64,000 bases of DNA from a bacterium (GTDB lineage: Bacteria; Patescibacteriota; Minisyncoccia; Sungbacterales; HO2-52-23), in contig JAUYPW010000013.1 in assembly GCA_030697525.1 (NCBI GenBank), positions 2,293 to 66,292 of the forward strand. The letters are read 5' to 3'. Of this stretch, positions 4,441 through 61,147 are shown piece by piece. The position numbers and the translations under genes were made by a program. How positions within the stretch are numbered: the first letter of the stretch is position 1; the number at the start of each line of letters is the position of its first letter. The notes under the pieces are model-generated. The model had not been told where the DNA came from, did no database searches, and was given only the letters and a program-made list of their open reading frames with translations.

Positions 4441-4464
4441 TAAGAATCATCCTTGTGGATTCGC

Positions 4465-4496
4465 AAAAGCCCCGTTTGAACGGGGCTTTTGTTTTG
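4465..4496. terminator. rho-independent terminator after the large surface protein gene
   Basis: AAAAGCCCCG-tttgaa-CGGGGCTTTTGTTTT. Confidence 0.7.
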
Positions 4497-4512
4497 ATAT
4501 TAGATGGTATTT

Positions 4513-4554
4513 ATAAACTTAAAATCCGGCATAGTGCCGGATTTTAAGTTATCC
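4513..4554. terminator. long palindromic bidirectional terminator element (conserved A/T arms ATAAACTTAAAA / TTTTAAGTTATCC)
   Basis: AACTTAAAATCCGGCA-tag-TGCCGGATTTTAAGTT is a perfect palindrome. A DnaA-box-like TTATCCCCA lies at 4549-4557. Confidence 0.55.
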
Positions 4555-4662
4555 CCAGCGTCGCAACAGCTCAACCAAGTGGACTCGCTGTTGCTCCCTA
4601 AAACCCCTCGGTTTTAGTATTTCCGCCACGGAAAACTCCCGTTTTCCGACCCTTTCCCAAAC

Positions 4663-4712
4663 CTGCAGATAACTTAAAACCCCGAATATTCGGGGTTTTA
4701 AGTTATCCACAG
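4663..4712. terminator. long palindromic bidirectional terminator element, 40-nt perfect palindrome
   Basis: GATAACTTAAAACCCCGAAT|ATTCGGGGTTTTAAGTTATC spans 4668-4707. A perfect DnaA box TTATCCACA lies at 4703-4711. Confidence 0.55.
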
Positions 4713-4854
4713 CTACTCCACTTTACTATTTGTAAGAGTAATATAGAATTGAAGTAAATAAAAAAACTTATCCACTGTAGTTACTAAAAACTACTGTGGC
4801 AATACAAATATGGTCATGTTTGTATTCGCTTAATTAATAATAAAAACAATATTT

Positions 4855-5808
4855 ATGAAAAAAAGGTTTCTATCAAGTCATTTTTCTTTTTTCTTGGCTT
4901 TGGTAATCGGTTTGGCATTAGCGGTGGGAGCGTCGGTTTGGGCTACCACTATCGGAACTAACATTTCCGGTACAGGCACTTTAGATATAACTGGCGCTAC
5001 AACCCTTAATGGAGCTGTAACTATAGGAGATGCGGCGGCGGATGCATTTACTATTAATAGCAATAGCGTGACTTTTGCTAATGCTGGTACTAGTACTATT
5101 CCATCAGCAAGCGCCGTTTCTTGGGCAATAGCAACCTCATCAGCAGACATGCCGTTCTTTAGATTTGATACTTCTAACACCAAAATCGGTATTGCAAGTG
5201 GTACGCCAATAGTTACCTTTTCTGTGGGCGGTGCTGGCAATATTTATGCAGCAGGAGGTTTAGGTGTCGGACAAGCAACTACTACCGCAGGTGTTATTGA
5301 AAATACTGGTAATGTTCTTTTTGGTGATGCCGCAGGAGACATAGTTAGGCTTAACTCTGCCAGTCTTATATTCAACAATGCAGGAACCACAACTATTCCT
5401 GCTGCCAGTGGCCCGAGTTGGGCAATTGCTACGTCGTCAGCAAATATTCCACTTGTTAGATATGATACCTCCAATAGCCGAATTGGTATCGCAAGTGGCA
5501 CGCCAATAACTACCCTTTCTATTGGCGGTGCCGGCAATGTTTATGCGGCAGGAGGTTTGGGTGTTGGGCAGGCTACAACAACAGCAGGAGTTATAGAGAC
5601 ATCTTCGGGACCATCACTTTTTGGTGGGGATGCGTTTGTTGTTGGCTCGTCAGGTACAACTACAATGAGAGTAGAATCAACAGCGAACGGCAGGGGAGGA
5701 TGTATTCAGATTGAGTCTCCCGGTGCTCTTGCTGGGGCTGGTTCATACTTTCATATGTACGCAACAACTACGGGTGCGGCCTACTGGCAGACAGGCGCTT
5801 GTAAATAA
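4855..5808 (+). CDS. secreted Gly/Thr/Ala-rich repeat protein (two ~101-aa internal tandem repeats; C-terminal Cys pair)
   Basis: It has a signal peptide/TM (FFLALVIGLALAVGASVWA). The repeat unit ...NAGT.TIP.AS..SWAIATSSA..P..R.DTSN..IGIASGTPI.T.S.GGAGN.YAAGGLGVGQATTTAGVIE... occurs twice, at about nt 5026-5328 and 5329-5635. The protein ends ...GGCIQIE...YWQTGACK. Confidence 0.7.
   Translation: MKKRFLSSHFSFFLALVIGLALAVGASVWATTIGTNISGTGTLDITGATTLNGAVTIGDAAADAFTINSNSVTFANAGTSTIPSASAVSWAIATSSADMPFFRFDTSNTKIGIASGTPIVTFSVGGAGNIYAAGGLGVGQATTTAGVIENTGNVLFGDAAGDIVRLNSASLIFNNAGTTTIPAASGPSWAIATSSANIPLVRYDTSNSRIGIASGTPITTLSIGGAGNVYAAGGLGVGQATTTAGVIETSSGPSLFGGDAFVVGSSGTTTMRVESTANGRGGCIQIESPGALAGAGSYFHMYATTTGAAYWQTGACK
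5026..5635 (+). repeat. in-frame ~303-nt tandem duplication (2 copies, ~80% nt identity) inside the 4855..5808 CDS
   Basis: GGAGGTTTAGGTGTCGGACAAGCAACTACTACCGCAGGTGTTATTGAAA (5255-5303) matches GGAGGTTTGGGTGTTGGGCAGGCTACAACAACAGCAGGAGTTATAGAGA (5552-5600). Confidence 0.6.
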
Positions 5809-5834
5809 TTCTCTTACTTAATTGTATTTAATTT

Positions 5835-6824
5835 ATGAAACGAATACTCACGTTTCTTATAACCGCCTTTTTACCCCTTACAGCTATGGCGGCAAATGAG
5901 GTAAGCTTAACTTCCAATGTAACTCTGGTACTGCCTTCAGATAGTTCGGAATACACTCTTTTAAATGGGAGCACGTTTGATTCTTTAATAGTCAATAATA
6001 CCAATTTCACTTTTGGAATGTCGGCTGGATCCAGCGTTGAGATAACGTCAGCCGATAAGAAGAAGCTTACTAACTCCTTATTAGCAACTATTCAATGTGA
6101 AAGTACTCAATCGAGAATATTTATGTCTAAGCCCTCGGGTGCTACGACTGAAGATATAACCGTTACCCCTTCTGGTACCTGTTCTTCGACCGGTGGAAGT
6201 GGCGGTGGTGGAGCTTCAAGCGGAGGTAGCAGTGGTAGTAGTGGAGGTGGGAGTAGTAGTGGCGGTAGTAGTGCGCCCGCGCCTTTGCCGGCCACGGAAA
6301 CAGTGGATAAGGTTGCCCAATTAAAAGCCCAAATAGCGAGCGTCCAGGCCGCTATAGCCCAAAAGCTTGCCCAAAAAGGAGTTCAAACAAAATATGTAGC
6401 GCCAGCCTTTGGTGTATTTGCCCGGAGTTTAGCTCCCGGGCAGAGGGATGATGAAATAAAAAGATTGCAAGAACTTCTGGCTACGGATAAAAGTATCTAT
6501 CCCGAAGGTAAGGTTACTGGATATTATGGGCCAGCCACACTCAATGCAGTTAAAAGATTTCAGAAGAAATATGGTATTTCTCAAGTTGGGAAAGTTGGAC
6601 CGCAGACCATTTCTAAACTAAACGAAGTTTTTGGGGGAACTATTCCAGTTGTTGTTCCCGAAACAAAACCAGCAACACAAGCTTCCGTTATTTCATCTCC
6701 AGCTTCCGCGGCGGTGAGCACTCAAGTCCAACAAATCCAAGAACAAATTAAAGCAATCCAGGCCAAACTGATTCAGGAGCAAATTAAACAAATTCAAGAA
6801 AAAATTAAATCCCTACAAAAATAA
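5835..6824 (+). CDS. secreted protein: signal peptide, N-terminal domain, Gly/Ser-rich linker, coiled coil, PG_binding_1 domain, C-terminal QEQIK coiled-coil motif
   Basis: The signal peptide is MKRILTFLITAFLPLTAMAA. A (GGS)n low-complexity linker lies at nt ~6175-6290. The PG-binding motif is DDEIKRLQELLA...VTGYYGPATLNAVKRFQKKYGI. The protein ends QQIQEQIKAIQAKLIQEQIKQIQEKIKSLQK*. Confidence 0.75.
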   Translation: MKRILTFLITAFLPLTAMAANEVSLTSNVTLVLPSDSSEYTLLNGSTFDSLIVNNTNFTFGMSAGSSVEITSADKKKLTNSLLATIQCESTQSRIFMSKPSGATTEDITVTPSGTCSSTGGSGGGGASSGGSSGSSGGGSSSGGSSAPAPLPATETVDKVAQLKAQIASVQAAIAQKLAQKGVQTKYVAPAFGVFARSLAPGQRDDEIKRLQELLATDKSIYPEGKVTGYYGPATLNAVKRFQKKYGISQVGKVGPQTISKLNEVFGGTIPVVVPETKPATQASVISSPASAAVSTQVQQIQEQIKAIQAKLIQEQIKQIQEKIKSLQK

Positions 6825-7573: not shown

Positions 7574-8611
7574 TTGTATAATGGTGATATGAGTAAAAAT
7601 CTGTTTAAGTTTTTATGTATAATTGCTGTATTATTTATCATACCATCAGTAAGTTTTGGGTTTTTCGAACGCGATCTCTATTTCGGACTCAAAAACAGCT
7701 CGGAGGTAAGTGGCCTGCAGGAATTTTTACAAAAACAGGGAGTTTATTCGGGGCCTGTCAATGGCAATTTCTTTTCTCTTACTCGTGAAGGGGTTAAAAA
7801 ATTTCAGATTAAGGAAAGCATAAAACCAGCCCTTGGTTATTTTGGGTCTATGACCCGAGCGGCTGCTAATCGCCTCGTTGTTGGGACGGGTGAGGCTACA
7901 AAAAAAGCTGATTTGATTGCTACGCTGCAAGTGCAGATCAAAGCCCTGAACGATCAATTACAGCAACTTCAGAAGCAACAGCAAAAAGAAAAGGAGGAGG
8001 AATTGGCAAAAACATCGGAGATTCCTGCCGTACCAGAAACACCTTCTCTCGCACCAGTTCCTCCACCACCAGCTTTGGAAATTAGCGGAGAAAAAAACCA
8101 GACCTTTCCTACTAGTTATACAAGTCCTCTTAAAATAGGCGATTTTACCATTGCAAATCGCACTGGCAATGATATCCTCTTTGCCCAGATTAAAATTAAG
8201 ATTACTGACCAGATGGATTCTTTTCTTAACCGCAACAAAGAAATACAGATTCTATTGAGAAAAGGTTCTTGGTTCTCCGACACCTTAATCTCAAAAACAG
8301 CGCATACTTTTAGTTCTTTGGTGGTTCCAGAAGGCTCATCGCATATCCAATTTGCGAACCTGTCTTATCCCATCTTAATAAAAAACGGAGAAGAAGTGAC
8401 CACTGGCCTGTGGATTGAAAATTTTGATTATGTTACCAGAGGTTCTCTTAAGTTTGAATTCTACGAAGCGCAAGCCACTACTGCTATAAGTCCTAAGGGA
8501 GGGTTTAACTTTACTTTGAGCAGGGTAAACACTACCGCATTAGGGGTGGTAAATAATTTAAGCAGTATACTGGGCTCACTTAATTCCTTACTTAAGCAGT
8601 TAGAAAAATGA
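7574..8611 (+). CDS. secreted protein with PG_binding_1-like domain, coiled coil, Pro-rich linker and C-terminal beta-rich domain
   Basis: It has a signal/TM segment (LFKFLCIIAVLFIIPSVSFG). The PG-binding-like motif is LQEFLQKQGVYSGPVNGNFFSLTREGVKKFQ. The coiled coil is ATLQVQIKALNDQLQQLQKQQQKEKEE, followed by the Pro-rich PAVPETPSLAPVPPPPA. Confidence 0.7.
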   Translation: MYNGDMSKNLFKFLCIIAVLFIIPSVSFGFFERDLYFGLKNSSEVSGLQEFLQKQGVYSGPVNGNFFSLTREGVKKFQIKESIKPALGYFGSMTRAAANRLVVGTGEATKKADLIATLQVQIKALNDQLQQLQKQQQKEKEEELAKTSEIPAVPETPSLAPVPPPPALEISGEKNQTFPTSYTSPLKIGDFTIANRTGNDILFAQIKIKITDQMDSFLNRNKEIQILLRKGSWFSDTLISKTAHTFSSLVVPEGSSHIQFANLSYPILIKNGEEVTTGLWIENFDYVTRGSLKFEFYEAQATTAISPKGGFNFTLSRVNTTALGVVNNLSSILGSLNSLLKQLEK

Positions 8612-8675
8612 TCTTCTCTTTGGAATTAAGGACCTATACTTGAAAAGTGTAGCCTTTTAGGCTAGTATAGTTTTT

Positions 8676-9476
8676 ATGGAAAAACTGAAGAATAGAAACA
8701 TCTTAATACTCCTTGGGGTAATCGTTGTTGCTGGCTTAGTTATACTGTTATTTAAGAAAAAAGAAGCTCTGGATACTACCCCGACCGTTGTCAATACCCC
8801 TGTAATTACTTCAACTGATTCAGTGCCCAAAAAACAGGACACAGTTACTGCCAGTGGCGCTTCTAATAATCCTAAGTATACTGGCCGTGATCCGGAAGAA
8901 GTTCATCCTAATCCTGACGATGTTAAAATTTTTTCTGAAAAAAGAAAAGAAGAAATTTATAGCGGTATTACCGTGCATGGGCGAAACGTAAAAGAAAATC
9001 CAGATTTTTTAAATGGCTGGTTGGAGCTTGGTATATTGAAAAAAGTGATTGGCGACTATGAAGGAGCACGGGACGCATGGGAATATGCAAATATTATAAG
9101 ACCGGGAAATTCAATTTCATTTTCCAATCTAGGGGAGCTTTATTGGCGATATCTGCCTAATTACACCAAGTCAGAAGCAAATTTTAAAACCTCTATTAAA
9201 AACAAATCAGACGATCCTTCTGTTTATATCTCCTTGTCCGACCTGTATTTCTACTCCTATGCGGAAAAAAAAGACTTTGCGGATGATATTCTTTTAGAAG
9301 GTACAAAAGCCAATCCCGAAGACACCAACCTTGTCCGAGCTTTAGCCGCTTTGTATGAGCGGCAAAAAGAATATACGAAAGCAAAAGAGTGGTGGACTAA
9401 GCTTCTGGAAAAAGAACCAAATGATGCGGAAATCACTGCCCACATCAAAGGGTTAGGGGAAAAGATTAATCCCTAG
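8676..9476 (+). CDS. membrane-anchored TPR-repeat protein
   Basis: It has an N-terminal TM (ILILLGVIVVAGLVILLF). The C-terminal half carries TPR-like helices (NGWLELGILKKVIGDYEGARDAWEYA...; LVRALAALYERQKEYTKAKEWWTKLLEKEPNDAE). Confidence 0.65.
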   Translation: MEKLKNRNILILLGVIVVAGLVILLFKKKEALDTTPTVVNTPVITSTDSVPKKQDTVTASGASNNPKYTGRDPEEVHPNPDDVKIFSEKRKEEIYSGITVHGRNVKENPDFLNGWLELGILKKVIGDYEGARDAWEYANIIRPGNSISFSNLGELYWRYLPNYTKSEANFKTSIKNKSDDPSVYISLSDLYFYSYAEKKDFADDILLEGTKANPEDTNLVRALAALYERQKEYTKAKEWWTKLLEKEPNDAEITAHIKGLGEKINP

Positions 9477-21027: not shown

Positions 21028-21051
21028 TAACTTTTGTTTTTATAAAAAAAT

Positions 21052-21114
21052 AGTGACAAGTTTAGTACAAATAGAGTATTATATATATGGTGTGTGTTGA
21101 ATAACAACAATTTC
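21052..21114 (+). promoter_or_regulatory. sigma70-like promoter (TGACAA - 17 nt - TATTAT) with a conserved extended spacer; followed by a degenerate copy of the gmhA 5' end and the RBS AAGGAGG
   Basis: AGTGACAAGTTTAGTACAAATAGAGTATTATATATATGG...TTGAATAACAACAATTTCTAA is near-identical to the sequence at 22750-22800, which is the promoter plus start of the gmhA-like gene. Confidence 0.45.
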
Positions 21115-21150
21115 TAAAATCTTGTCAGTGCTAGAGAAAAGGAGGTAGTT

Positions 21151-22710
21151 ATGCGGACACCGAAAGTTCTTTTTATTTACCCACCGATACAGCTTACGGA
21201 TATAGAAACCCCTCGTCCTGATGGGTCACTAGGACCTCTTTACTTGGCTGGAGCTTTGCGAGAAATAGGAATTGAAGCAGACATAATAGACGCCAGCGTC
21301 GGCACTCCGGAAGATGATGTAAAAGATACTTTCCATAGAAGCGTATCACAGGAAAACGGTTTGATCCGTATTGGTATGTCTTGGGAACGTATAGAAGAGG
21401 TTCTGGGACAAAGGAATTATGATATTATAGGTATACATTCCAATTTTACTCCCCAGACCCGAATGGTTCTGAAGGTTGCCGAAATAGCCAAAAAAATCAA
21501 CCCGGAGACTTTAGTTATATCTGGCGGAGTAAACGCCCGTGCTATACCTAAATATCTTTTCCGCGATGGACTCGTGGATCTTGTCTGCACCACGGAAGGT
21601 GAAAAAGTAATGGTAGATATCGTTAATGGATGGACGAGAGACCAATCCATTAAAGGGTTGCAGGGAATACCCGGAACAATTTGCAGAAAAAGCGAAAGAA
21701 AGAATGCCGAAATTTTAGCTACTCCTCTGGGACTAAACACCGTGACTTCTGATTTGGATAAACTTCCCATTCCGGCTTGGGATAAACTGCCGTTTGAAAA
21801 GTACGATCAAATATCCGCAACCCCAGGAATATCCTTGATTGGCCATAACTTGCGCCACGCATCCATGATGACTTCCCGCGGTTGCCCTTTCCGCTGTCTT
21901 TATTGCCACATCTCCAGAGAAAAAGGAGATGGACTGGAAGATACTGGCGACATCGGTTCTTATCGCGTAAAATCGGTTGATAGGGTGTTTAAAGAAATAG
22001 AAATTCTTAAACATCTGGGGGTAAAAAGAGTTTTTCTAGAAGACGATAGTTTGCTTGCCAAGAAAAGCAGAGTGAAAGAAATTTTTAACGGCCTGCTGGG
22101 TGCTGGTCTTACCATGTTGGGAATAAATGGAGTAAATCTTGTACATTTTTTCCAAAGAAATAATGTAGGCAAGCTTGTGCCGGATGAAGACTATATGCAG
22201 CTCCTACAATCTTCCGGCTTTGGCCAAATTGTCTTTCCAATTGAGTCGGGTTCCCAAAGGATTCTGGATAAGTATGCTACCGCCAAATTAAAACTACCCA
22301 TAATGGATGTGGTGGGGCTAGTACAAGTCGCCAAGAAGGTTGGGATAGTCTGTCCCATAAATATGATGATTGGATTTCCGGATGAGAGCGAAGAGGAGAT
22401 GCTAATGTCAGTTGATCTTGCGCGTAAGTTGATTGATGCCGGAGCTCCTTACGTTACTTTCTTCATTCCTATCCCTTTCCCCGGATGCGATCTTTATGAT
22501 ATTGCTCTTGCGGGAGGGTATCTTAATCAAGAGTTTGACCCGGATATTTTCAATTGGAAGAAGCCGGTTATGGAAAACACCGTTGTCGCTCCGCAAAGGA
22601 TAGAAGAAATACGCGAGTGGGCTCAAGGAACTGTAAACACCAAAGAACACGTTGCCAATAGAATAAAAGAAAGCGCTGGAGCCAGAAGATGGGACTCCAA
22701 CGATTTATAA
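21151..22710 (+). CDS. B12-binding (cobalamin-dependent) radical SAM enzyme, class B radical SAM methyltransferase-like
   Basis: The N-terminal B12-binding Rossmann region is KVLFIYPP...LYLAGALREIGIEADIIDA...IIGIHSNF. The radical SAM CX3CX2C motif is MMTSRGCPFRCLYCH. A strong SD, AAGGAGGT, sits 6 nt upstream. Confidence 0.8.
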   Translation: MRTPKVLFIYPPIQLTDIETPRPDGSLGPLYLAGALREIGIEADIIDASVGTPEDDVKDTFHRSVSQENGLIRIGMSWERIEEVLGQRNYDIIGIHSNFTPQTRMVLKVAEIAKKINPETLVISGGVNARAIPKYLFRDGLVDLVCTTEGEKVMVDIVNGWTRDQSIKGLQGIPGTICRKSERKNAEILATPLGLNTVTSDLDKLPIPAWDKLPFEKYDQISATPGISLIGHNLRHASMMTSRGCPFRCLYCHISREKGDGLEDTGDIGSYRVKSVDRVFKEIEILKHLGVKRVFLEDDSLLAKKSRVKEIFNGLLGAGLTMLGINGVNLVHFFQRNNVGKLVPDEDYMQLLQSSGFGQIVFPIESGSQRILDKYATAKLKLPIMDVVGLVQVAKKVGIVCPINMMIGFPDESEEEMLMSVDLARKLIDAGAPYVTFFIPIPFPGCDLYDIALAGGYLNQEFDPDIFNWKKPVMENTVVAPQRIEEIREWAQGTVNTKEHVANRIKESAGARRWDSNDL

Positions 22711-22713
22711 CCC

Positions 22714-22739
22714 AATGAGGACCTCGGTCCTCATTTTTT
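22714..22739 (+). terminator. rho-independent terminator
   Basis: AATGAGGACC-tc-GGTCCTCATTTTTT. Confidence 0.7.
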
Positions 22740-22750
22740 AAAAGAAAACA

Positions 22751-22785
22751 GTGACAAGTTTAGCATAAACTAGGTAGTATATATT
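22751..22785 (+). promoter_or_regulatory. sigma70-like promoter (TGACAA - 17 nt - TAGTAT) ending about 6 nt before the ATG, which implies a leaderless or near-leaderless transcript
   Basis: GTGACAAGTTTAGCATAAACTAGGTAGTATATATT|ATG has no SD sequence. It is the same extended motif as at 21052 and 59269. Confidence 0.45.
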
Positions 22786-23421
22786 ATGAATAACAATAAT
22801 TCCTATGCTGAATCGTTTCTCCAGCAAATAAACGAGATTAGCACAGTTTTGAAGGTCTTATATGGCGCTAAGCTGGATCAGGCTGTAAACCTGCTTTTTG
22901 ATGCTTGGCGAGATGGTAGGTGGGTGTATATCATGGGTAACGGCGGTTCGGCCTCAACGGCCACGCATTTTGCCTCGGATTTGGCTAAAACGATTTGTGA
23001 TACCCCACAAGATTCAGGGCTAAAAGCCCTAGCTTTGGTTGATAATATTCCTCTGGTTAGCGCCCTGACCAATGATTGGGGTTGGGACAATCTTTATCTC
23101 AATCAATTAAAAAATTTTTATGTCCCCGGGGGCGTAGGTATTGGTATTAGTGTTCATGGGGGAAGCGGCAAAGAAATTGCTGGCCAGTGGTCGCAAAATC
23201 TGTTACGAGGACTGCAATTTATAAAAGACAAAGGCGGCAAGACCATAGGGTTAAGTGGTTTTGACGGCGGACCGATGAAAGATTTGGTAGATATCGGTAT
23301 TGTGGTGCCAGCCAATTCAACCCCGGTTGTAGAGGGCATGCATGTTGTTTTACACCACCTGCTAGTATTTGGCCTTAAAGAAAAAATTAATGAACACAAG
23401 AAAAATAGCCCTATTTATTGA
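22786..23421 (+). CDS. gmhA: D-sedoheptulose-7-phosphate isomerase (SIS domain), GmhA-like
   Basis: The SIS-domain motif is VYIMGNGGSASTATHFASDL. The length is ~210 aa, with about 50 aa before the GNGGS motif as in GmhA. Confidence 0.75.
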   Translation: MNNNNSYAESFLQQINEISTVLKVLYGAKLDQAVNLLFDAWRDGRWVYIMGNGGSASTATHFASDLAKTICDTPQDSGLKALALVDNIPLVSALTNDWGWDNLYLNQLKNFYVPGGVGIGISVHGGSGKEIAGQWSQNLLRGLQFIKDKGGKTIGLSGFDGGPMKDLVDIGIVVPANSTPVVEGMHVVLHHLLVFGLKEKINEHKKNSPIY

Positions 23422-33476: not shown

Positions 33477-33515
33477 ACGATTCTCTAGACCCTTTTCCAC
33501 TATTATATATTCTAA

Positions 33516-34706
33516 ATGAGGATATATTTTATTACTACAAAACTAAACTTTGTTAATGCTGGCGGATCAGTCAGAGATATTGACCTGCGCGCTAAAGCCC
33601 TAGTAGAAATGGGGCATACGGTGACCGTTATAAGCGCCTTCCCCGAATCAAATATTATCACCGAATCTTTGCCATATCAGGTCAAAGAAGAATTTATTCG
33701 CTCGCGGGGCTTGTTAGGTATTCAAATAGGCGCCCACCGCATTATAAAAAAATATGAACAAAAAGCCGATGTTTTCCACGTTGATGGCCAAGTGTTTTTA
33801 TATGCTGCTGGTTGGTACCGTCTGATGGGTGGTCGCGTGCCGGTTCTAAGTCTTTTCAATCACTGGCTTAATGCCTGGGCGGACGAAACCCAAGCTGACG
33901 TCAAACCAGTTAAACCCTACTGGTGGTGGGCCAAATGGCTGAAGAAAAAACTGCGTTTTTTCTTGGAACGAAGGCTGGGAGTATTTATTGCCAACCGGGC
34001 CGATGCTTTTATTTTTGATACCCCACAGATAGAAAAAAAATTTATTAGTCTTGGTTTCAACGCACACAAGGGATTTGTTTTGCCAGATTTTGTTGATACT
34101 CAAGGATCGCTTGCAGGGGAGTCTATGACGATGGATAAGATTATATCCCATCAGCAACCACGCCGAGGTATAGTTACCATACTACTGACCGGCAGAATGT
34201 TGCCGGAGAAGGGTTTTGATATGGCAATTAAAGCTTTTGTCTCCCTACCCAATAAAGAGAATTATCGTGTTATTATGAGCGGTACTGGTCCGGAATTAAA
34301 TAATCTCCAGCGCCAAGTCTCCGAACTAAAGTTGCAGGATTTTTTTTATTTTCCTGGTTGGGTGGATAGGGAAGAATTGTTAAGTTTTTTCCAGCAAGCG
34401 CAGATTTTTATTTTTCCGAATTGGTGGCCAGAATATGGTTCAGTGACGTTTGAAGAGGCTATGTCTTTTGGATTAGCAAGTATTATACCAGACGGAGGGG
34501 CTTTAGAGTGGTTGTCGGGCGGTACGGCCTTCACGTTTAAAAGTAATAACGTAGCTGACCTTTCCCGTGCTATGCAGCAATTAGGCGAGGATACTAATCT
34601 CAGAATTAAGATAGCACAAAAAAGCTTGGAGCATATCGTCAAGCTCGATTATCGAATAGTCGGCAGAGAATTGGAAAGAATACTCAAATCTATTGTCCAG
34701 ATTTAA
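33516..34706 (+). CDS. GT4 family glycosyltransferase
   Basis: The GT-B C-terminal region is PNWWPEYGSVTFEEAMSFGLASIIPDGG. The N-terminus is MRIYFITTKLNFVNAGGS. Confidence 0.7.
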   Translation: MRIYFITTKLNFVNAGGSVRDIDLRAKALVEMGHTVTVISAFPESNIITESLPYQVKEEFIRSRGLLGIQIGAHRIIKKYEQKADVFHVDGQVFLYAAGWYRLMGGRVPVLSLFNHWLNAWADETQADVKPVKPYWWWAKWLKKKLRFFLERRLGVFIANRADAFIFDTPQIEKKFISLGFNAHKGFVLPDFVDTQGSLAGESMTMDKIISHQQPRRGIVTILLTGRMLPEKGFDMAIKAFVSLPNKENYRVIMSGTGPELNNLQRQVSELKLQDFFYFPGWVDREELLSFFQQAQIFIFPNWWPEYGSVTFEEAMSFGLASIIPDGGALEWLSGGTAFTFKSNNVADLSRAMQQLGEDTNLRIKIAQKSLEHIVKLDYRIVGRELERILKSIVQI

Positions 34707-40951: not shown

Positions 40952-43503
40952 TTTTCCACCCAGTAAGGATTCTCTACCTGCTTGTTATTTAAGAGTTTTT
41001 TGGCAGATATCCTGCCTTGTTCTAGTAAAGATGGGTAGCTGAATTCAATCAAGTTTTTTCCGGCAGGTACTAGGACAGCCTGATACAAATAATTGGCGGT
41101 GTAGAGATTGGTTTCTTTGCCATTTATCGATGCGCGCCAAAACGGATATTTATTCTCGCTAAACACCACGAAACGGGCATTTTTGGTAACGGTCTCAACC
41201 CGCAATCTCCCCGCTGTGTAGTTTAAAAGTTTAAGAGAGTCGTTTTTATCCCCCTTTCCGTATTGTACTGGCAAGACATCATCTTTTTTCCTTTCTAGAA
41301 GAGTGGTCTCATTGAAATCATCAACAGTCTTAATTACATCCAGAGCTAATTTTTCATCCGACTCGGTCCATATTATTTCTTTGGCGAAATACCACCGAGG
41401 CATAAAATCCGGATTTTGATATATATAGATAGGAACCTTCCCGTCCAATATATGGGTAGTAAATATTTTCTTCCATTTGCCAGTGAGCTCAAAAGGGGAC
41501 AGAACATATTTTACATTTAGCATACCCAGAATAGTAGTTCCTTTTTCGCTGAAGTTTTTTATGTAAGCAGTGAATGGGGTAGTGAGAGTAAAATCTTGTT
41601 TTGTTTCAACACTTTGCTGGCGGGCCGTGTAGTATAGATTGATCATGCGGCGCAAGGCGAGGGCTTGATGATTATAAAAAGCATCGAGATCGTATAAGAC
41701 ATTAAGGTTGTCATCCATCATCTCATAATAAAACCACTGTTTATTATTCGGGTTTACAATGTCTGTATTATATTTTTCAGCAATCTCGGCAACATATTGG
41801 TCCGGAGTATAGAGAAATATTCTATAGGGTTGGATTGCTTGAGCGGTATACTGTGTTAGAGGTAGAGAATTGCTTCGATATGATTCTGTGGCATGGAGAA
41901 ATCTGGCAGTAGCCGGAGGATTCTTTATGAATTCCACAGGGGGACCCTTAAGAATATCTTTCCAGACCACAATCGAGCCGAGGAATGTGATAAATATAGA
42001 ACCCCACAGCCATTTTTGCCAAGAAATTAATCCATATTTTCCCAAGGTAAGAAATAGAATGGTTACTATCCAAAGAGTAAAAATAAAAATAGTTTGAGGT
42101 TCTGTAAAAGAGAATTTACTCACCACGCTTGTGGCAATGTTTTTTACAAGCCCTTTATAATAGATATCCGATCTCAAGAAAACCCTATCCGGGGTATTTT
42201 TAAAGTGTTCTACTCCATATTCAGTTAAAGCTGTAGTTATGGATTGCTGGTAAATAGTTACCACAACACTTGTTATGGTTATAGTGATAAGTACCCCCCA
42301 GAGAATTTTAAGCAAAACGGCGCTTCTCTTGGCTCGAAAAAATATTTTTATGTAATCCAGGGAGTGGGCCGCTGTAAGTGATAAGGAAAAAACAATTACA
42401 AAAGACCATTTCCATTGGCCGCCAAACCAGTTTAGTACTGGCAGTTGGTGAAGTAGCCAGAAAAGAGGTGAATATTTTATGGCAATAAGTAGGAACATTA
42501 CCCCCAGCCAAAAGAAGAATCTAAAAACCCCTTTATTTTTACGATAAGTAAAAATACTGACCAAAACCAATAGAAATGGCAGCGTACCGATATATAGCAC
42601 TATATCTTGATCGCCAAGCGCCAAAAAAGGCATAGTCTCGCCATAGTACACAAAAGAGTTGGGATGGATCATACGTAGGAAGTGAGAAAGAGTTATCGGC
42701 ATCATGGCCGCGTTTGATATACCCCCACTTCGGGCGGAGTAGGATATAAAATTCAATATAGAGAGGAACCATGGAAGGAGTATTACTATACTCATAATGA
42801 CCCCGCCTAGCAGGAGCAGTAAGTTTTTTAGTTTTTTCTTGGTTGCACCTCCGCTAAACAAGAGATACAGGGTGAATGATCCTGTTGCCACAAGAGCATA
42901 AACGGCCATCTCTGACCACCCCCCAACCCACACATAGAGCATTAAGGGTAACCACAACCAAAACCATCTTCTTCGGCCCTCCATTATTTTTTTACAAATC
43001 AAAAAAGAGAGCGGCAAAAAAGGCATGAGCGCGGCGATGCCTGTGACATCTAGGTATTTGATGGATACGCCGCTGAATGAATAGGCTAGGGTTCCGACCA
43101 AACTAGCTGGTTTACTTAGTCCCAGATTCCGAGCCAGAAAATAAAAACTTCCCGCGTTAGCCAAAAAGAAAAATAAAATAAGAAGGTTGTTGGCGGTGAA
43201 AGGATTTAAGAATCCGATAGTCGCGAGAAAAAGCGGATTTAAGAATCCATCCAAGGTAAGAGCAATTGGATAACCGGAGTTAAATGCTGGCCACCAATTT
43301 GGGAGTATGCCCAGATCATAGAAAAAAAATCGCATTACTTTAAGATATCCGTAGTGATAAGCGCCGATAAACTGCAAAGGAAAAATGTGTTTTCCGGAGA
43401 GTATTGGCCAAAACAAAAATAAAGCCCCAGTCGTTATAATAAGCGCTGGGCCAGCCTTAATTACAAAGTTTTTTATTCTATCTTTTACCACAATGTGCAT
43501 CAT
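40948..43503 (-). CDS. large polytopic membrane protein, YfhO-like (GT-C superfamily candidate; extracytoplasmic glycosyltransferase)
   Basis: It is 851 aa, with an N-terminal ~500 aa of multiple TM helices and a C-terminal ~300-aa soluble domain. The size and topology match the YfhO family; there is no direct motif proof. Confidence 0.5.
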   Translation of the reverse strand: MMHIVVKDRIKNFVIKAGPALIITTGALFLFWPILSGKHIFPLQFIGAYHYGYLKVMRFFFYDLGILPNWWPAFNSGYPIALTLDGFLNPLFLATIGFLNPFTANNLLILFFFLANAGSFYFLARNLGLSKPASLVGTLAYSFSGVSIKYLDVTGIAALMPFLPLSFLICKKIMEGRRRWFWLWLPLMLYVWVGGWSEMAVYALVATGSFTLYLLFSGGATKKKLKNLLLLLGGVIMSIVILLPWFLSILNFISYSARSGGISNAAMMPITLSHFLRMIHPNSFVYYGETMPFLALGDQDIVLYIGTLPFLLVLVSIFTYRKNKGVFRFFFWLGVMFLLIAIKYSPLFWLLHQLPVLNWFGGQWKWSFVIVFSLSLTAAHSLDYIKIFFRAKRSAVLLKILWGVLITITITSVVVTIYQQSITTALTEYGVEHFKNTPDRVFLRSDIYYKGLVKNIATSVVSKFSFTEPQTIFIFTLWIVTILFLTLGKYGLISWQKWLWGSIFITFLGSIVVWKDILKGPPVEFIKNPPATARFLHATESYRSNSLPLTQYTAQAIQPYRIFLYTPDQYVAEIAEKYNTDIVNPNNKQWFYYEMMDDNLNVLYDLDAFYNHQALALRRMINLYYTARQQSVETKQDFTLTTPFTAYIKNFSEKGTTILGMLNVKYVLSPFELTGKWKKIFTTHILDGKVPIYIYQNPDFMPRWYFAKEIIWTESDEKLALDVIKTVDDFNETTLLERKKDDVLPVQYGKGDKNDSLKLLNYTAGRLRVETVTKNARFVVFSENKYPFWRASINGKETNLYTANYLYQAVLVPAGKNLIEFSYPSLLEQGRISAKKLLNNKQVENPYWVEN

Positions 43504-43511
43504 ATACTAGT

Positions 43512-44300
43512 ATGCCCAAAAAACATTTACATGACAAGTTTTCAAATAAAAGAATTATCGCGCGACTGGACATAAAAGGTGGGAATGTAGTAAAGCCCGT
43601 GCATACCGAAGCCTTACGTATTGTTGGAAAACCTAGAGAACGAGCAGAACTTTACTATAAGCAAGGTATTGATGAGATTGTGTATATGGATATAGTGGCG
43701 AGTCTCTACGGTCGCAATCTGGATTTTGATCTTCTGCGGTCAGTGGCAGAAAATATTTTTGTTCCCCTAACGGTGGGAGGCGGTATAAGAACTATCAAAG
43801 ATATCAATGAAGCTCTTAGGTCTGGGGCGGATAAGGTAGCGATAAATACTTACGCCATTGGCAACCCGAATTTTTTAGAAAAGGCTATCCACGAGTTTGG
43901 CTCGCAATGCATTGTTCTATCTATCGAGGCAAAGAAACAGGCAAACGGGCATTGGGAGGCGTATACAGATGGTGGACGCGAAAGGACGGGTGTAGATGTG
44001 GTGGAATGGGCCAGGCAGGGAATAAAAAGGGGGGTGGGTGAATTACTCATAACTTCCATTGATCGTGATGGCACAAGACAGGGATACGACCTAGATTTGA
44101 TAAAACGCATATCTTCCCTTTCTCCTATTCCAGTTATCGCTTATGGAGGTGCCGGAAAGCCTGAAGATATGGGGGAAGTAATAAAAAAAGCTAGGGCTGA
44201 TGCGGTGGCTGCAGCTTCAATTTTTCATTATGATTTATGTTCTGTGCGGGAGATAAAGAAACATTTAAATAGTATTGGAGTATATACCAGGACCTTATGA
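43512..44300 (+). CDS. HisF-like cyclase subunit of imidazole-glycerol-phosphate-synthase family (WbuZ-type, glycan amidation-associated)
   Basis: IIARLDIKGGNVVKPVHTEAL...GIDEIVYMDIVAS...PLTVGGGIRT is HisF-like. It is adjacent to a HisH-like gene and a WbuX-like gene. Confidence 0.8.
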   Translation: MPKKHLHDKFSNKRIIARLDIKGGNVVKPVHTEALRIVGKPRERAELYYKQGIDEIVYMDIVASLYGRNLDFDLLRSVAENIFVPLTVGGGIRTIKDINEALRSGADKVAINTYAIGNPNFLEKAIHEFGSQCIVLSIEAKKQANGHWEAYTDGGRERTGVDVVEWARQGIKRGVGELLITSIDRDGTRQGYDLDLIKRISSLSPIPVIAYGGAGKPEDMGEVIKKARADAVAAASIFHYDLCSVREIKKHLNSIGVYTRTL

Positions 44301-47873: not shown

Positions 47874-48145
47874 GGAGACCAGGATTCGAACTAACATCAA
47901 TTTAGTGAATCAATTCCCGTCCCAGATTCAAGGCGCGAGAAGCGAAGTGTATCTTTAGATACACGAGCGACGAGAAACGCAGAAGATGGGCGGGAATTGA
48001 TTCACCCGAAGGGAAGAGAGAATTTGGCCAATTTCTTCGTCACTCCTCGGAGAGGTGCTGGTCAGCACGATCTCCTTGTCGTTCCTAGAACTTGGCTCAA
48101 ATTCTCTCTTCTAAACTCTGATGCTAGTTCGAATCCTGGTCTCCA
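47874..48145. repeat. 272-nt nested perfect-palindrome element (22-bp terminal inverted repeats plus at least five internal perfect hairpins) directly abutting the neuB-like start codon
   Basis: The terminal inverted repeats are GGAGACCAGGATTCGAACTAAC and GCTAGTTCGAATCCTGGTCTCC. Internal perfect pairs are GTGAATCAATTCCCG/CGGGAATTGATTCAC, GTGTATCT-tt-AGATACAC, GAAGAGAGAATTTG/CAAATTCTCTCTTC, CCTC-gga-GAGG and GTGCTG-gt-CAGCAC. Confidence 0.6.
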
Positions 48146-57271: not shown

Positions 57272-58240
57272 TTAAGCCATCATGGCTCTGACCTCTTCTA
57301 TTATCTGCTCGGTGCTGGGGTGATAATTTTTTAGCAAATAAGGTGTGGCCGGAGCCGGAACTTCTGGAAGGGCGATTCGTTGGGGCTTTCTATCTAAATA
57401 CAGATTCTCGCATACCAGAGCAATGACTTCCGCAGAGACCCCGAAAGACCGCCACCCGGTATCGGCTACTATTAGCCGTCTTGTTTTAGCTACGGACTCA
57501 AGAATTACTCGACTATCCAAAGGACGAATAGAGCAGAGATCTATTACCTCAACACTTACTTCGTTTTCAAGTTGCTCGGCAACCTCCAATGCGTTTTGGA
57601 GCACAGCCGATACGGCAACGATAGTAATGTCACTTCCGACCCACGCCACCCTTGCTTGACCTAATGGAATCTCATAAAGCTCTTCTGGAACATGATCCTT
57701 TTGTTCAAACAAGGCTCGATGGTAAAGAACAATCACCGGATCGTCGTCGGCAATGGCTGAAAGCAACAATCCCTTCGCGTCGTAGGGCGTGGCTGGCATT
57801 ACTACCTTTAGACCCGGGATATGGGCAAATAAGGACTGAAGACTCTGGGAGTGCTGGGCTCCTTCGCCGGGTTTTCTAGCTATAAAACTCACCACAGTTA
57901 AAGGCACTTTATGGACACCAGCTGAAATATATCTGAATTTTGCCGCATTATTTACCAGCTGGTCCATGGTCAGCAACATAAAGTCATTACGCTGATGAAA
58001 AAGCACTGGGCGAAGACCGTCCATGGCAGCGCCTATGGCAATGCCGGTAAGCCCGTTTTCCGAAAGGGGGGTGTCAATCACCCTTTGGGGGCCAAAACGC
58101 TTAAAGGAAGGCAAGATCGTGCCATATATGCCGGTTATGTTATCAACCCCTTCACCCATAAGAAGTACTCTTGGGTCTTCCATGGCTTGGACCAGTCCAT
58201 CGGCTATGGCCTGAACGTAAGTCAATTGGCGATCTACCAT
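57272..58240 (-). CDS. thiamine-diphosphate enzyme beta subunit (transketolase C-terminal / 2-oxoacid dehydrogenase E1-beta-like)
   Basis: QLTYVQAIADGLVQAMEDPRVLLMGEGVD...RVIDTPLSENGLTGIAIGAAMDGLRPV is the typical E1-beta / transketolase Pyr domain. Confidence 0.8.
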   Translation of the reverse strand: MVDRQLTYVQAIADGLVQAMEDPRVLLMGEGVDNITGIYGTILPSFKRFGPQRVIDTPLSENGLTGIAIGAAMDGLRPVLFHQRNDFMLLTMDQLVNNAAKFRYISAGVHKVPLTVVSFIARKPGEGAQHSQSLQSLFAHIPGLKVVMPATPYDAKGLLLSAIADDDPVIVLYHRALFEQKDHVPEELYEIPLGQARVAWVGSDITIVAVSAVLQNALEVAEQLENEVSVEVIDLCSIRPLDSRVILESVAKTRRLIVADTGWRSFGVSAEVIALVCENLYLDRKPQRIALPEVPAPATPYLLKNYHPSTEQIIEEVRAMMA

Positions 58241-59184
58241 TGGTACAACTCCTTTTCTTCGGGCTCCGGGCTCGATTTAGCAAAATCAACCGCTTCCGCA
58301 ATTTCCGCGTTAATTTGTTCCGTCATCAGCGCAAAGTTTTTTTGGTTGATTAGGGCGCCTCCGAGCCTGTCGCTCAAACGCAGCAAAGGACATTTTTTTC
58401 GCCACATATCCCCTTCTGCTTCCCAGCGGTAGCCCAGATGCCAATCCTCTCCGGGTCCCCAATGTTCTTTTAGCCGGTAAGTCTTAGCTTCTAAAAACGA
58501 TGGTCCTTGGCCAGAAAGAGATCGGCCGATCATCTTCAAAGTCATCTCATATACACTCTCCACATCGTTTCCATCCACTGTCTCGGCGTAGACACCGTAA
58601 CCGGACAGGCGAGAAGCAATTTGGTCATTGGGTTGTCTTTTAATAATGTGAGAATGAGTTGCGTATAAATTATTCTCACACACAAAAATAACCGGCAGAT
58701 GATGTACTTGAGAAAAGTTTAGACTTTCCCAAAAAACACCTTCTTCAACTGCGCCATCTCCAAAGAAAGCAACAGTCACTCGTCTGATTCCTTTCAGTTG
58801 CGCGGAGAAAGCGGTACCCACAGCAATCGGAATACTTCCGGCAACTATAGGCAGAGACAAGAAAACGCCAGCAGAAGGTTCAAAAAGATGCATTGAACCG
58901 CCCTTTCCCCTGGAACAGCCACCTACTTTGCCCGCCAATTCGGCGTACATTTTCTTGAGACTTCCGCCCTTAGCCAGATAATGTGCGTGGCACCTGTGGG
59001 TTGAAACTATCAAGTCTTCTTCGGCCAGCGCCTGGCATACTCCCACAGCCACAGCTTCCTGACCGGTGGAGAGATGCATCAGCGAGCGTATTTCATTCGC
59101 GTGCCAAAGTTCAATCAATTTTTCTTCCGCTAGTCTGATTCGCAACATTTCGCGGTAAAACTGGCTAAGTAATTCTTCTGTCAT
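58234..59184 (-). CDS. thiamine-diphosphate enzyme alpha subunit (E1-alpha / transketolase N-terminal-like, TPP-binding)
   Basis: The TPP-binding region is HLSTGQEAVAVG...STHRCHAHYLAKGG...GKGGSMHLF, with GDGAVEEG. It overlaps the beta-subunit gene by 7 nt. Confidence 0.8.
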   Translation of the reverse strand: MTEELLSQFYREMLRIRLAEEKLIELWHANEIRSLMHLSTGQEAVAVGVCQALAEEDLIVSTHRCHAHYLAKGGSLKKMYAELAGKVGGCSRGKGGSMHLFEPSAGVFLSLPIVAGSIPIAVGTAFSAQLKGIRRVTVAFFGDGAVEEGVFWESLNFSQVHHLPVIFVCENNLYATHSHIIKRQPNDQIASRLSGYGVYAETVDGNDVESVYEMTLKMIGRSLSGQGPSFLEAKTYRLKEHWGPGEDWHLGYRWEAEGDMWRKKCPLLRLSDRLGGALINQKNFALMTEQINAEIAEAVDFAKSSPEPEEKELYQW

Positions 59185-59268: not shown

Positions 59269-59297
59269 TTGACAACAATAGCATAAGCTAGTAGATT
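59269..59297 (+). promoter_or_regulatory. sigma70-like promoter TTGACA - 17 nt - TAGATT, third member of the extended promoter family
   Basis: TTGACAACAATAGCATAAGCTAGTAGATT matches TGACAAGTTTAGCATAAACTAGGTAGTAT (22752) at 22 of 29 positions. The SD GAAAGGAG lies ~50 nt downstream, before the ATG at 59358. Confidence 0.45.
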
Positions 59298-59357
59298 ATA
59301 AACAGGTCTAAGTAATTAAATATTGAGGGTTAATCCACCACTCTCTTAGAAAGGAGA

Positions 59358-59867
59358 TTGGTTATGGCACGAGAAGGGTTCTGGCAGGAAGTTGAGCAGG
59401 CTATCATTCTACAGGACTATGCTATTGCCCTAGAAGGGCAGCAAAAGATCGATGAGGTTGTGAAGAACAAGGCAGATGTGTGGCGCAAGGTTTTAATTGA
59501 ATTAATTCCAGAGATTCGAGATGGTCATACTAAGGTTTCTTCATATAAATTCGGTGAAGGATCGGAAGGGGATAGTGTAACATATGGCTATAAAATTCTT
59601 TCCAAAAATTACCGTTTTTATATCGAATGTTTTTATCCCCCAGGTAACTCGAAAGAACTTAGGCGTTTCAGCGTACATGTAAAAAGTGGTTTTTGGGGTT
59701 TATTCAGTAGGTGTATTGTGCGTTTTGATATCAACAAGCTTATTTGTTCGGGTCAGAAACTTAGCTCATTAGCCCAGATGCCAAACGCTTGCGTGCAGGT
59801 TCATAACATTCTTGATCAAATGTCCGCCAACAAAGAGGTAAATCAGATGTTCACTAGAAAGAGCTAG
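59358..59867 (+). CDS. hypothetical protein (169 aa), no recognisable domain
   Basis: It has a strong SD (AAAGGAGATTGGTT-ATG), a predicted promoter upstream and a bidirectional terminator downstream. Confidence 0.5.
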   Translation: MVMAREGFWQEVEQAIILQDYAIALEGQQKIDEVVKNKADVWRKVLIELIPEIRDGHTKVSSYKFGEGSEGDSVTYGYKILSKNYRFYIECFYPPGNSKELRRFSVHVKSGFWGLFSRCIVRFDINKLICSGQKLSSLAQMPNACVQVHNILDQMSANKEVNQMFTRKS

Positions 59868-59897: not shown

Positions 59898-59932
59898 TAA
59901 ATCCACCAGCCTAGTGCCGGTGGATTTTTGTT
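59898..59932. terminator. bidirectional rho-independent terminator between convergent genes
   Basis: AAAAAATAAATCCACC-agcctagtgcc-GGTGGATTTTTGTTT. Confidence 0.7.
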
Positions 59933-59938
59933 TGAAAA

Positions 59939-61147
59939 TCAAATCACATTACCCCGATGAGGAAAGGGAAGAGTCTCCAATGTTACTAACTCGGCCTGTT
60001 GCTCCTCGGGAGACATTTGCTGGAATTTGAGGAGATACCTGTTTTCCTTGTCCGGATGGCAAGTCTTCCGGCAAACACTGATGTCAAAATCCTTCATAAA
60101 CTCCAGATGCTGACGACGTCGTTCCCCGAACCAAATTTCATTTATAGTTTGGGTGTTGATATTTCCTAGATGAAAGTCTGCGTTTGTCCAATGAGCTGAA
60201 CAGCTGATCCAAACTCCATCTGCCTGCACATACGACCAAAGGGTCGGTGTGGCCAAACATCTGGCGTAACCACGATCAGTTTCTTCATACTCTTTGAAAC
60301 GACTGAAGCGAAATATTACTTCAAAATCATCTGTTTGGTACCGATCTCGGAGCATGTCTCCGGTATCCATAATTTCGTCCATCATACCGGCATAGCTCAT
60401 GTCGCCATACAACTTCATGGTCTCGGTGCTATACGGATGCTGGCTATAGGGCTTGAAAGAAACATAATCAAGCCCCGTATCCCTGGCTTTCTGGGCGAGA
60501 TCTTCAACATTTGGCCAGTTGGGGGGAATACGTTTACCATCTTCAAGAACAGCTTCCTTGACCAAGATGGTCATGTTTGCGCCAATTTGGCAAGTGCTTC
60601 CCGACTCTCTTTTGATTCTGACCAGGTTTGCCAGATTCTTCCACAAACGTTCCCAATCGTGAGTGCCGGTTTTATGTATCAGAGCATAGCTTTCGGCAGT
60701 TCCTGCATTTATACTTATTTGGATATACACGTTGGTAAACGGCAATATTTCGTGAATACGTTTCTCTGTAAGTGCGACACCATTGCTCAACATGGCCACA
60801 TCAATTCCTGCCGATCGAGCATACCCAAATATTTTACCAAGTTTTGGGTGAAGCATGGGCTCGCCCTCACCGGCAAACTGAATGCTTTTAATTCCCAAAC
60901 CATCCGGATCTTTTTCGCGAAGCTCTTTTATTTCGGCAAATCGTTCGGCCAAAATAGAGTCTTTGAGATAGTTGGTTTTGTAGCCCAGCATTTCTGGCGC
61001 GCAGAAGGTGCATCGATGGTTGCACGCGCCGGCCGGTGACATTTCTATGTAAACAGGTGGCACTGAAAATGGATCATCATTCCAACGTTTGATCCAAACA
61101 GGGTGATACTTTATCTTTGCGCTTTCAATCCAGTCTCGGATTCTCAT
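59939..61147 (-). CDS. radical SAM enzyme with C-terminal Cys-rich (SPASM/twitch-like) extension
   Basis: The CX3CX2C motif is SPAGACNHRCTFCAPE and the GGEP-like SAM motif is IQFAGEGEPMLHP. C-terminal cysteines lie in ...WISCSAHW...DISVCRKTCHPD. Confidence 0.75.
   Translation of the reverse strand: MRIRDWIESAKIKYHPVWIKRWNDDPFSVPPVYIEMSPAGACNHRCTFCAPEMLGYKTNYLKDSILAERFAEIKELREKDPDGLGIKSIQFAGEGEPMLHPKLGKIFGYARSAGIDVAMLSNGVALTEKRIHEILPFTNVYIQISINAGTAESYALIHKTGTHDWERLWKNLANLVRIKRESGSTCQIGANMTILVKEAVLEDGKRIPPNWPNVEDLAQKARDTGLDYVSFKPYSQHPYSTETMKLYGDMSYAGMMDEIMDTGDMLRDRYQTDDFEVIFRFSRFKEYEETDRGYARCLATPTLWSYVQADGVWISCSAHWTNADFHLGNINTQTINEIWFGERRRQHLEFMKDFDISVCRKTCHPDKENRYLLKFQQMSPEEQQAELVTLETLPFPHRGNVI

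Follow-up and report, generated by a model that had tools for sequence, protein, structure and literature searches.

A duplicated sigma-70-type promoter module, probably related by descent, before a radical SAM gene and gmhA in a Patescibacteria surface-glycan cluster

We examined a 64,000-nt stretch of DNA (the window, whose first letter is position 1) from contig JAUYPW010000013.1 of assembly GCA_030697525.1 (positions 2,293 to 66,292, forward strand), and within it two similar promoter modules, R1 and R2, that lie on either side of a gene for a B12-binding radical SAM protein, R2 reaching into the gmhA-like gene behind it. The genome is that of an uncultured member of the Patescibacteria (candidate phyla radiation, CPR), and the R1/R2 locus sits within a long co-directional surface-glycan cluster that encodes glycosyltransferases, asparagine synthase, methyltransferases, the radical SAM protein and a SIS-domain GmhA, together with an aminotransferase and the genes that place gmhA in a heptose context: a GmhB-like HAD phosphatase, a transaldolase, a GHMP kinase and an NTP-transferase. 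As a set these genes look like a nucleotide-heptose pathway. The gmhA product matches Pfam SIS_2, its best NCBIfam match being TIGR00441 (gmhA) at 95.8 bits against a 209-bit cut-off, and its nearest relatives are annotated as Patescibacteria, Magasanikbacteria or Minisyncoccia. Both GmhA and the radical SAM protein have identical counterparts on an NCBI contig of a metagenome-assembled genome and on a Logan contig from SRR13727529. The features of the locus are as follows.

21037..21116, + strand: R1, the module's upstream copy, made up of a T/A tract, -35, spacer, -10 and the decayed gmhA start, from repeat search and gapped alignment
21053..21058, + strand: R1 -35 hexamer, GTGACA
21077..21082, + strand: R1 -10 hexamer, TATTAT
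21087..21104, + strand: relic ATG where gmhA has its own ATG, opening a 5-codon mini open reading frame (ORF), ATG GTG TGT GTT GAA TAA (putatively translated)
21097..21117, + strand: decayed copy of the first 7 gmhA codons, TTG AAT AAC AAC AAT TTC TAA
21140..21145, + strand: Shine-Dalgarno (SD) sequence AGGAGG, 5 nt before the radical SAM ATG
21151..22710, + strand: B12-binding radical SAM gene, 519 aa, class-B methyltransferase-like, under every NCBIfam family cut-off
22714..22740, + strand: intrinsic terminator, 9-bp stem, 4-nt loop and U-tract (-14.1 kcal/mol, z -4.3)
22735..22805, + strand: R2, downstream copy of the promoter module, reaching into gmhA, from repeat search and gapped alignment
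22751..22756, + strand: R2 -35 hexamer, GTGACA
22775..22780, + strand: R2 -10 hexamer, TAGTAT, whose end is 5 nt ahead of the gmhA ATG
22786..23421, + strand: gmhA-like SIS-domain gene (sedoheptulose-7-phosphate isomerase), ATG 22786 being the sole start that fits the homologues

The repeat search (family D8) recovers 21037-21086 and 22735-22784 as a direct repeat of 50 nt, ungapped, at 80% identity, and gapped alignment stretches the homology to 21037-21116 against 22735-22805 (about 71-80 nt), with a 10-nt GT-rich insertion in R1 at 21088-21097 relative to R2. The homology runs from the T/A tract through the -35 hexamer, the 18-nt spacer and the -10 hexamer into the ATG and the next 19 nt of gmhA. 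R1 lies after the stop codon of the upstream methyltransferase gene and begins, behind a weak A/U hairpin, at a T-run equivalent to that of R2. Against the sigma-70 consensus R1 (GTGACA-18-TATTAT) scores 10/12 and R2 (GTGACA-18-TAGTAT) 9/12, neither with an extended -10 TG; the TGACAA sequences that a first-pass annotation of the window had singled out at 21054 and 22752 are both found there.

Behind the R1 promoter, the relic TTGAATAACAACAATTTCTAA (21097-21117) matches the start of gmhA, ATGAATAACAATAATTCCTAT (22786-22806; ATG AAT AAC AAT AAT TCC TAT), at 17 of 19 aligned bases. Because of the 10-nt insertion, the original ATG at 21087 now starts a five-codon ORF. The degenerate gmhA start that the first-pass annotation had described at this point is thus present, and the duplication of promoter plus start which it proposed for the region before the radical SAM gene is supported by both the ungapped repeat and the gapped alignment; of the 35-nt leader with a perfect SD that it placed next, the AGGAGG stands, while the distance from the relic stop to the ATG comes to ~33 nt. 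The closest gmhA relative, locus L005, whose GmhA is 87% identical, has a tandem duplication of its own gmhA start region (172-210 of that locus), TATTATGAGTAACAAT being followed 19 nt later by ATGGATAACAATAAC, which yields an 8-codon ORF overlapping the real gmhA start. Since L005 too carries a tandem copy of the start, this AAT/AAC-rich region seems prone to duplication.

R1 and R2 enclose a monocistronic unit that is complete in itself, with ~60 nt of leader, a perfect SD, the radical SAM ORF and a strong terminator whose U-tract doubles as the first part of R2. Among ~25 related loci with flanking sequence, only the window has the radical SAM gene directly upstream of and co-directional with gmhA; in others it is on the opposite strand 2-4 kb off (L003, L008), divergent (L023), or absent. 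The protein is just 50% identical to its homologue in L003, although the GmhA of that locus is 84% identical, and its best database relatives reach just 60-62%. Every homologue inspected has an SD (GAGAGG or GGAGG), and their promoters differ; since the homologues share the SD but not the promoter, the gene appears to move in glycan clusters as a unit with its own ribosome-binding site and without its own promoter. A foreign origin judged from composition was considered for this gene and rejected, its G+C content at third codon positions (GC3) having a z-score of only +0.6. In L008, a tblastn match to the radical SAM protein (57% identity; 5296-6813, - strand) falls where gene calls give two + strand ORFs without Pfam matches, probably a gene-calling conflict.

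The gmhA start itself is fixed at ATG 22786 by the in-frame stop TAG at 22771-22773 and by conserved N-terminal residues: homologues begin at this position, and the next in-frame start, TTG 22849, would remove nearly invariant residues including F11 and L12. The R2 -10 hexamer ends at 22780, with T at -1 and A at +1 of the gene, and the ATG therefore follows it by 5 nt with no SD, just as the first-pass annotation had it. Transcription from R2 would be expected to start at ~22786-22787, GTGACA-18-TAGTAT being the only good promoter there, and the first 17 nt of the gmhA mRNA are predicted to be unpaired. On these grounds it is plausible that the gmhA mRNA is leaderless or bears 0-1 nt of leader. 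The missing SD was rejected as an argument for it, since an SD (≥4 nt) precedes only ~7 of the 52 ORFs in the window and ~45 of 52 lack one; none was found before any of 19 related gmhA genes either. An anti-SD motif has been detected in just 48% of Parcubacteria (PMC9297842). In the literature searched we found no paper on leaderless mRNAs in Patescibacteria and no transcript-start data for this lineage. Because the -10 hexamer of relatives lies 8, 11, 11 and 17 nt from the gmhA ATG, the clade would seem to rely on leaders that are very short and free of an SD, and not on a leaderless geometry that is strictly conserved, a very short leader being as likely as none.

Other starts in the window have a comparable look: TATAAT, 6 nt and ATG at 7589 (7577-7591); TTGAAA-17-TAGTAT, 7 nt and ATG at 8676 (8640-8678); and TATTAT with 9 nt (or TATATT with 4 nt) before ATG at 33516 (33490-33518). 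In one divergent gene pair the start codons are 8 nt apart (43503 on the - strand and 43512 on the + strand; 43500-43514). No window-wide peak of TANNNT was seen 5-8 nt before start codons, first-in-operon genes being too few. Strong SDs occur at 21140, upstream of 58240, upstream of 59184, at 59352 and upstream of 63761, with a common AGAAAGGAG-type site. GC3 is raised (z ~+2.5) in the E1 dehydrogenase genes (57272-59184) and in a further radical SAM gene (59939-61147), and these genes may be an acquired block.

A third promoter lies far downstream, in a 173-nt divergent intergenic region.

59269..59297, + strand: third promoter, TTGACA-17-TAGATT, sigma-70 consensus 10/12
59364..59867, + strand: near-orphan gene of 167 aa behind the third promoter, with AGGAG at 59352-59356

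Here TTGACA (59269-59274) and TAGATT (59292-59297) are 17 nt apart, and so the third copy proposed at 59269 is borne out as a promoter-like site with TGACAA from 59270, while its -10 falls outside the TA(G/T)TAT consensus given for it. Its spacer sequence TAGCATAAGCTAG (59279-59291) is in register with TAGCATAAACTAG of R2 (22761-22773): 18 of 22 bases agree, TAGCATAA(A/G)CTAG has its first base 9 nt beyond the T of TGACA in each, and the first three spacer bases of copy 3 deviate. A match of 18/22 anywhere was reached in 2 of 300 Markov-simulated windows, and 13 of the 17 bases after TGACA are matched against an expectation of 0.002 over the 85 TGACA sites in the window, which puts the chance level at p ~0.002-0.007. 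Copy 3 is also the best non-paralogous gapped match in the window (score 36, next best 28); its core is ~78% identical to R2, a single 1-nt gap being allowed, and it resembles R1 less. Its likeness exceeds chance but is much weaker than that of the R1/R2 pair. The gene behind it is followed by a strong hairpin (59899-59927), which the scan calls on the minus strand. Its protein has no family match and no homologue in a word-indexed search; a full HMMER search of 1.8 billion representatives gave only two distant homologues (46-49% identity). Both have strong SDs, and because their upstream regions (one cut by a contig end) are unrelated to copy 3, the third promoter appears to be local and not inherited along with the gene. 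Most simply, copy 3 would belong to the same propagated-promoter family as an older member that has diverged further.

The first-pass annotation had taken the conservation through the spacer as a sign of a dedicated sigma factor or regulator and its TGACAA motif as the mark of a regulon, and here our comparison points elsewhere. Matches along the R1/R2 repeat are evenly distributed over functional and non-functional parts, at 13/16 bases in the upstream T/A tract, 13/13 around the -35, 5/6 in the -10 and 17/19 in the coding relic, and identity within the spacer is no higher than in the T/A tract or the coding relic; the remainder of the R1 spacer differs at several positions and by indels, and the inverted repeat AGTTTA-N3-TAAACT of R2 has been lost from it without compensating changes. 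Because its identity matches that of the non-promoter flanks, the likeness of the two spacers is best read as the common descent of a drifting duplicate, not as a protected operator. Among orthologous loci, L003 has TTGACA-17-TATTTT and L005 TTGACA-16-TATTAT just upstream of the gmhA ATG, both with unrelated spacers; with L020 and L027 included, the pattern is TTGACA/TTGATT/TTGACG-16/17-TATnnT at 8-17 nt before the ATG and no spacer likeness, and in other relatives gmhA follows directly behind apt without any promoter. The exact motif TGACAANNNTAGCATAANCTAG (TGACAA-N3-TAGCATAA-N-CTAG) has two matches in 185,579 species genomes, in Maribacter and in a Bacteroidales metagenome-assembled genome, both unrelated; it occurs in no relative in that collection and nowhere in IMG/VR, neither of which holds the source genome, and the 64-kb window has no further copies. 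A blastn-short search with R1, R2, copy 3 and the radical SAM leader against the fetched related loci gave no further copies outside the source contig; a 15-nt match to the leader in L014 falls within coding sequence and was put down to chance. Nor did the spacers prove to be enriched in CTAG or TAGC: CTAG is only mildly depleted (125 observed, where a Markov model predicts 137), and TAGCATAA is as frequent as expected. Given the canonical housekeeping hexamers, the equally conserved flanks, the unrelated orthologous spacers and the absence of the motif from the relatives in that collection, from IMG/VR and from the rest of the window, the dedicated sigma factor or regulator with its regulon is not supported.

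We consider it probable that a single housekeeping (sigma-70/SigA-type) promoter module gave rise by descent to both R1 and R2. All three sites are good sigma-70-type matches (9-10/12, spacers of 17-18 nt) and correctly placed. A segment of ~71-80 bp, reaching from the U-tract/A-tract through the -35 GTGACA, the 18-nt spacer and the -10 as far as the 21st nucleotide of gmhA, would have been duplicated as the self-contained radical SAM unit was placed directly upstream of gmhA, so that the gmhA promoter was copied for the newcomer. From its anatomy, R1 would start at ~21087-21090 and produce a monocistronic radical SAM mRNA whose leader, of ~60 nt, includes a strong SD; that transcript would end at the terminator (22714-22740), and R2 would re-initiate at or within a base of A22786 to give a gmhA-gmhB... 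mRNA, leaderless or nearly so. The two units would thus share a promoter type and be expressed alike without a special factor, copy 3 serving another self-contained, SD-led and terminator-bounded gene. Several points weigh against this account or limit it. The 20% divergence and three indels mean that the duplication is not recent, and the preservation of the hexamers (11/12, as against 29/38 elsewhere) is statistically like neutral decay. No relative with an 'empty' methyltransferase-gmhA junction was found among the loci compared, and either insertion or duplication may have come first. The 5-nt gap from -10 to ATG is one base under the commonest spacing, and promoter function and leaderless initiation are both read from consensus and geometry. 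Finally, most of what copy 3 shares falls in the -35 and spacer, a 10/12 palindrome, TAGCATAAGCTA, being part of it; copy 3 may be either an older propagated copy or a shared operator.

Among the alternatives, it is unlikely that R1 is an unused scar of rearrangement, the radical SAM gene being read through from the long upstream glycosyltransferase/methyltransferase operon and gmhA being transcribed either from upstream or from R2 and using an SD-independent internal start. The upstream methyltransferase gene is followed by no more than a weak A/U hairpin (-7.4 kcal/mol, z -1.6), most genes in the window start translation without an SD inside operons, and the R1 hexamers are not preserved statistically above the background identity. 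However, R1 has retained both hexamers and the 18-nt spacing after ~20% divergence and scores above R2, and the strong terminator behind the radical SAM gene demands an independent promoter for gmhA and shows separate transcription units. That the similarities are chance matches among AT-rich promoter-like sequences we regard as scarcely credible: the sequences are indeed AT-rich and their upstream tracts of low complexity, but for R1 and R2 a 50-base ungapped repeat at 80% identity that continues into coding sequence refutes it, for a 22-mer search in which up to 3 mismatches are allowed the number of matches expected by chance is 0.00, and the level of copy 3 is that seen in just two of the simulations.

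A bound spacer is a rather improbable explanation as well. It would have TAGCATAA(A/G)CTAG bound by a repressor or an activator dedicated to it, or else recognized by a specialised sigma factor, with the radical SAM gene, the heptose operon and the 167-aa gene as its regulon. In its favour, copy 3 shares its 13/17 bases with R2 in the same register at so low an expectation, both spacers hold near-palindromes (that of copy 3, and the inverted repeat of R2), and at 8640-8668 there is a fourth promoter-like site, which likewise shows TAGC 9 nt after TGA, together with TAGCC-N5-GGCTA. Yet the hexamers are canonical, the palindromes vary between sites in sequence and in half-site spacing, that of R2 has no compensated counterpart in R1, and the overall similarity of the 8640 site (score 23) is not significant; the orthologous gmhA promoters, the promoters of the 167-aa gene homologues and the motif searches described above speak against it too. 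We give a similarly small chance to a further pair of possibilities: either the motif 9 nt after the T of TGACA is an operator for a lineage-specific regulator, or the module is being spread actively as a means of wiring up SD-bearing newcomers in an otherwise SD-poor, largely leaderless genome, the duplicated start in R1 then acting as a leaderless five-codon mini-ORF that modulates radical SAM expression.

Overall, descent from one housekeeping promoter would make the three sites a small family of sigma-70-type promoters that spread by propagation, a new instance, from a poorly studied phylum, of an evolutionary mechanism already known. The locus would be a natural example of a relocated surface-glycan gene that gains transcription through a copy of its neighbour's promoter, start codon included, and it cautions that conservation through a promoter spacer can be mere shared ancestry. 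Beyond this, gmhA and a few other genes of the window are candidates for leaderless or near-leaderless expression in an SD-poor Patescibacteria lineage.

Two other elements of the window bear mention. At 47874-48144 (+ strand), between an ORF and a NeuB-like gene and with TATAAT just upstream, are 271 nt of nested inverted repeats, the outer arms of 26 nt being 96% complementary and the two inner hairpins having arms of 18 nt (94%) and 14 nt (100%); its RNA fold is predicted at -141.7 kcal/mol (z -12.3). At its ends the element looks like a tRNA/tmRNA acceptor-T arm (GGTTCGAATCC-like), and nothing was reported there by ARAGORN, or by Rfam even at E≤1. This could be a structured RNA or a DNA palindrome similar to MITEs (miniature inverted-repeat transposable elements). 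In the 414-nt intergenic region at 4441-4854 there are three sequences like DnaA boxes (GTTATCCCCAG, GTTATCCACAG, CTTATCCACTG), besides several G+C-rich hairpins; it may be an origin or a DnaA-regulated region.

Among known systems, MerR-type promoters have spacers of 19-20 bp, and the ops element (GGCGGTAG) of JUMPstart/ops lies in the transcribed leader of polysaccharide genes. Both recall the present locus in having conserved sequence between or near the promoter hexamers of polysaccharide genes; unlike MerR-type promoters, however, the spacers here are of 17-18 nt, and GGCGGTAG is absent, so neither a MerR-type spacer operator nor JUMPstart/ops fits. The likeness to SigA promoters with an UP-like A/T tract is closer, with (T/G)TGACA, a 17-18-nt spacer, TAKTAT or TAGATT, and T- then A-tracts upstream, the only difference being the sequence relatedness of the spacers. 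Promoters mapped in the CPR bacterium Nanosynbacter lyticus follow the same -35/-10 model (PMC12641261), and in that cross-phylum study, which includes a CPR species, spacer composition could shift promoter output up to 600-fold, a mundane reason for which a good spacer might be kept when a promoter is copied. Leaderless mRNAs are abundant in Actinobacteria and Deinococcus, for example M. tuberculosis, according to the statement in PMC12641261 that cites Cortes et al. 2013. The gmhA gene is like them in its -10 a few bases before the ATG, the lack of an SD and the predicted unstructured 5' end; unlike the established cases, it is proposed from sequence geometry in a lineage that is generally SD-poor.

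The nearest parallel concerns the putative mobile promoters, defined as sequences of 50-100 nt with at least 80% identity within one genome, upstream of non-homologous genes (Matus-Garcia, Nijveen & van Passel 2012, PMC3488235; PMC3575422). R1 and R2 fall within that definition (50 nt ungapped at 80%; ~71-80 nt gapped), copy 3 (18/22, roughly 70-78% over 30-55 nt with gaps) below its threshold, and the genes behind the three copies, for a B12-radical SAM protein, a SIS-domain GmhA and an orphan 167-aa protein, are non-homologous. The present case differs from mobile promoters in that the family is tiny, with two clear copies and one diverged, that R1 and R2 are just 1.7 kb apart and flank the gene concerned, and that the duplicated piece includes the donor's start codon with six further codons and no mobile element. 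In common with mobile promoters, the copy would have offered a ready-made promoter to a relocated or newly placed gene.

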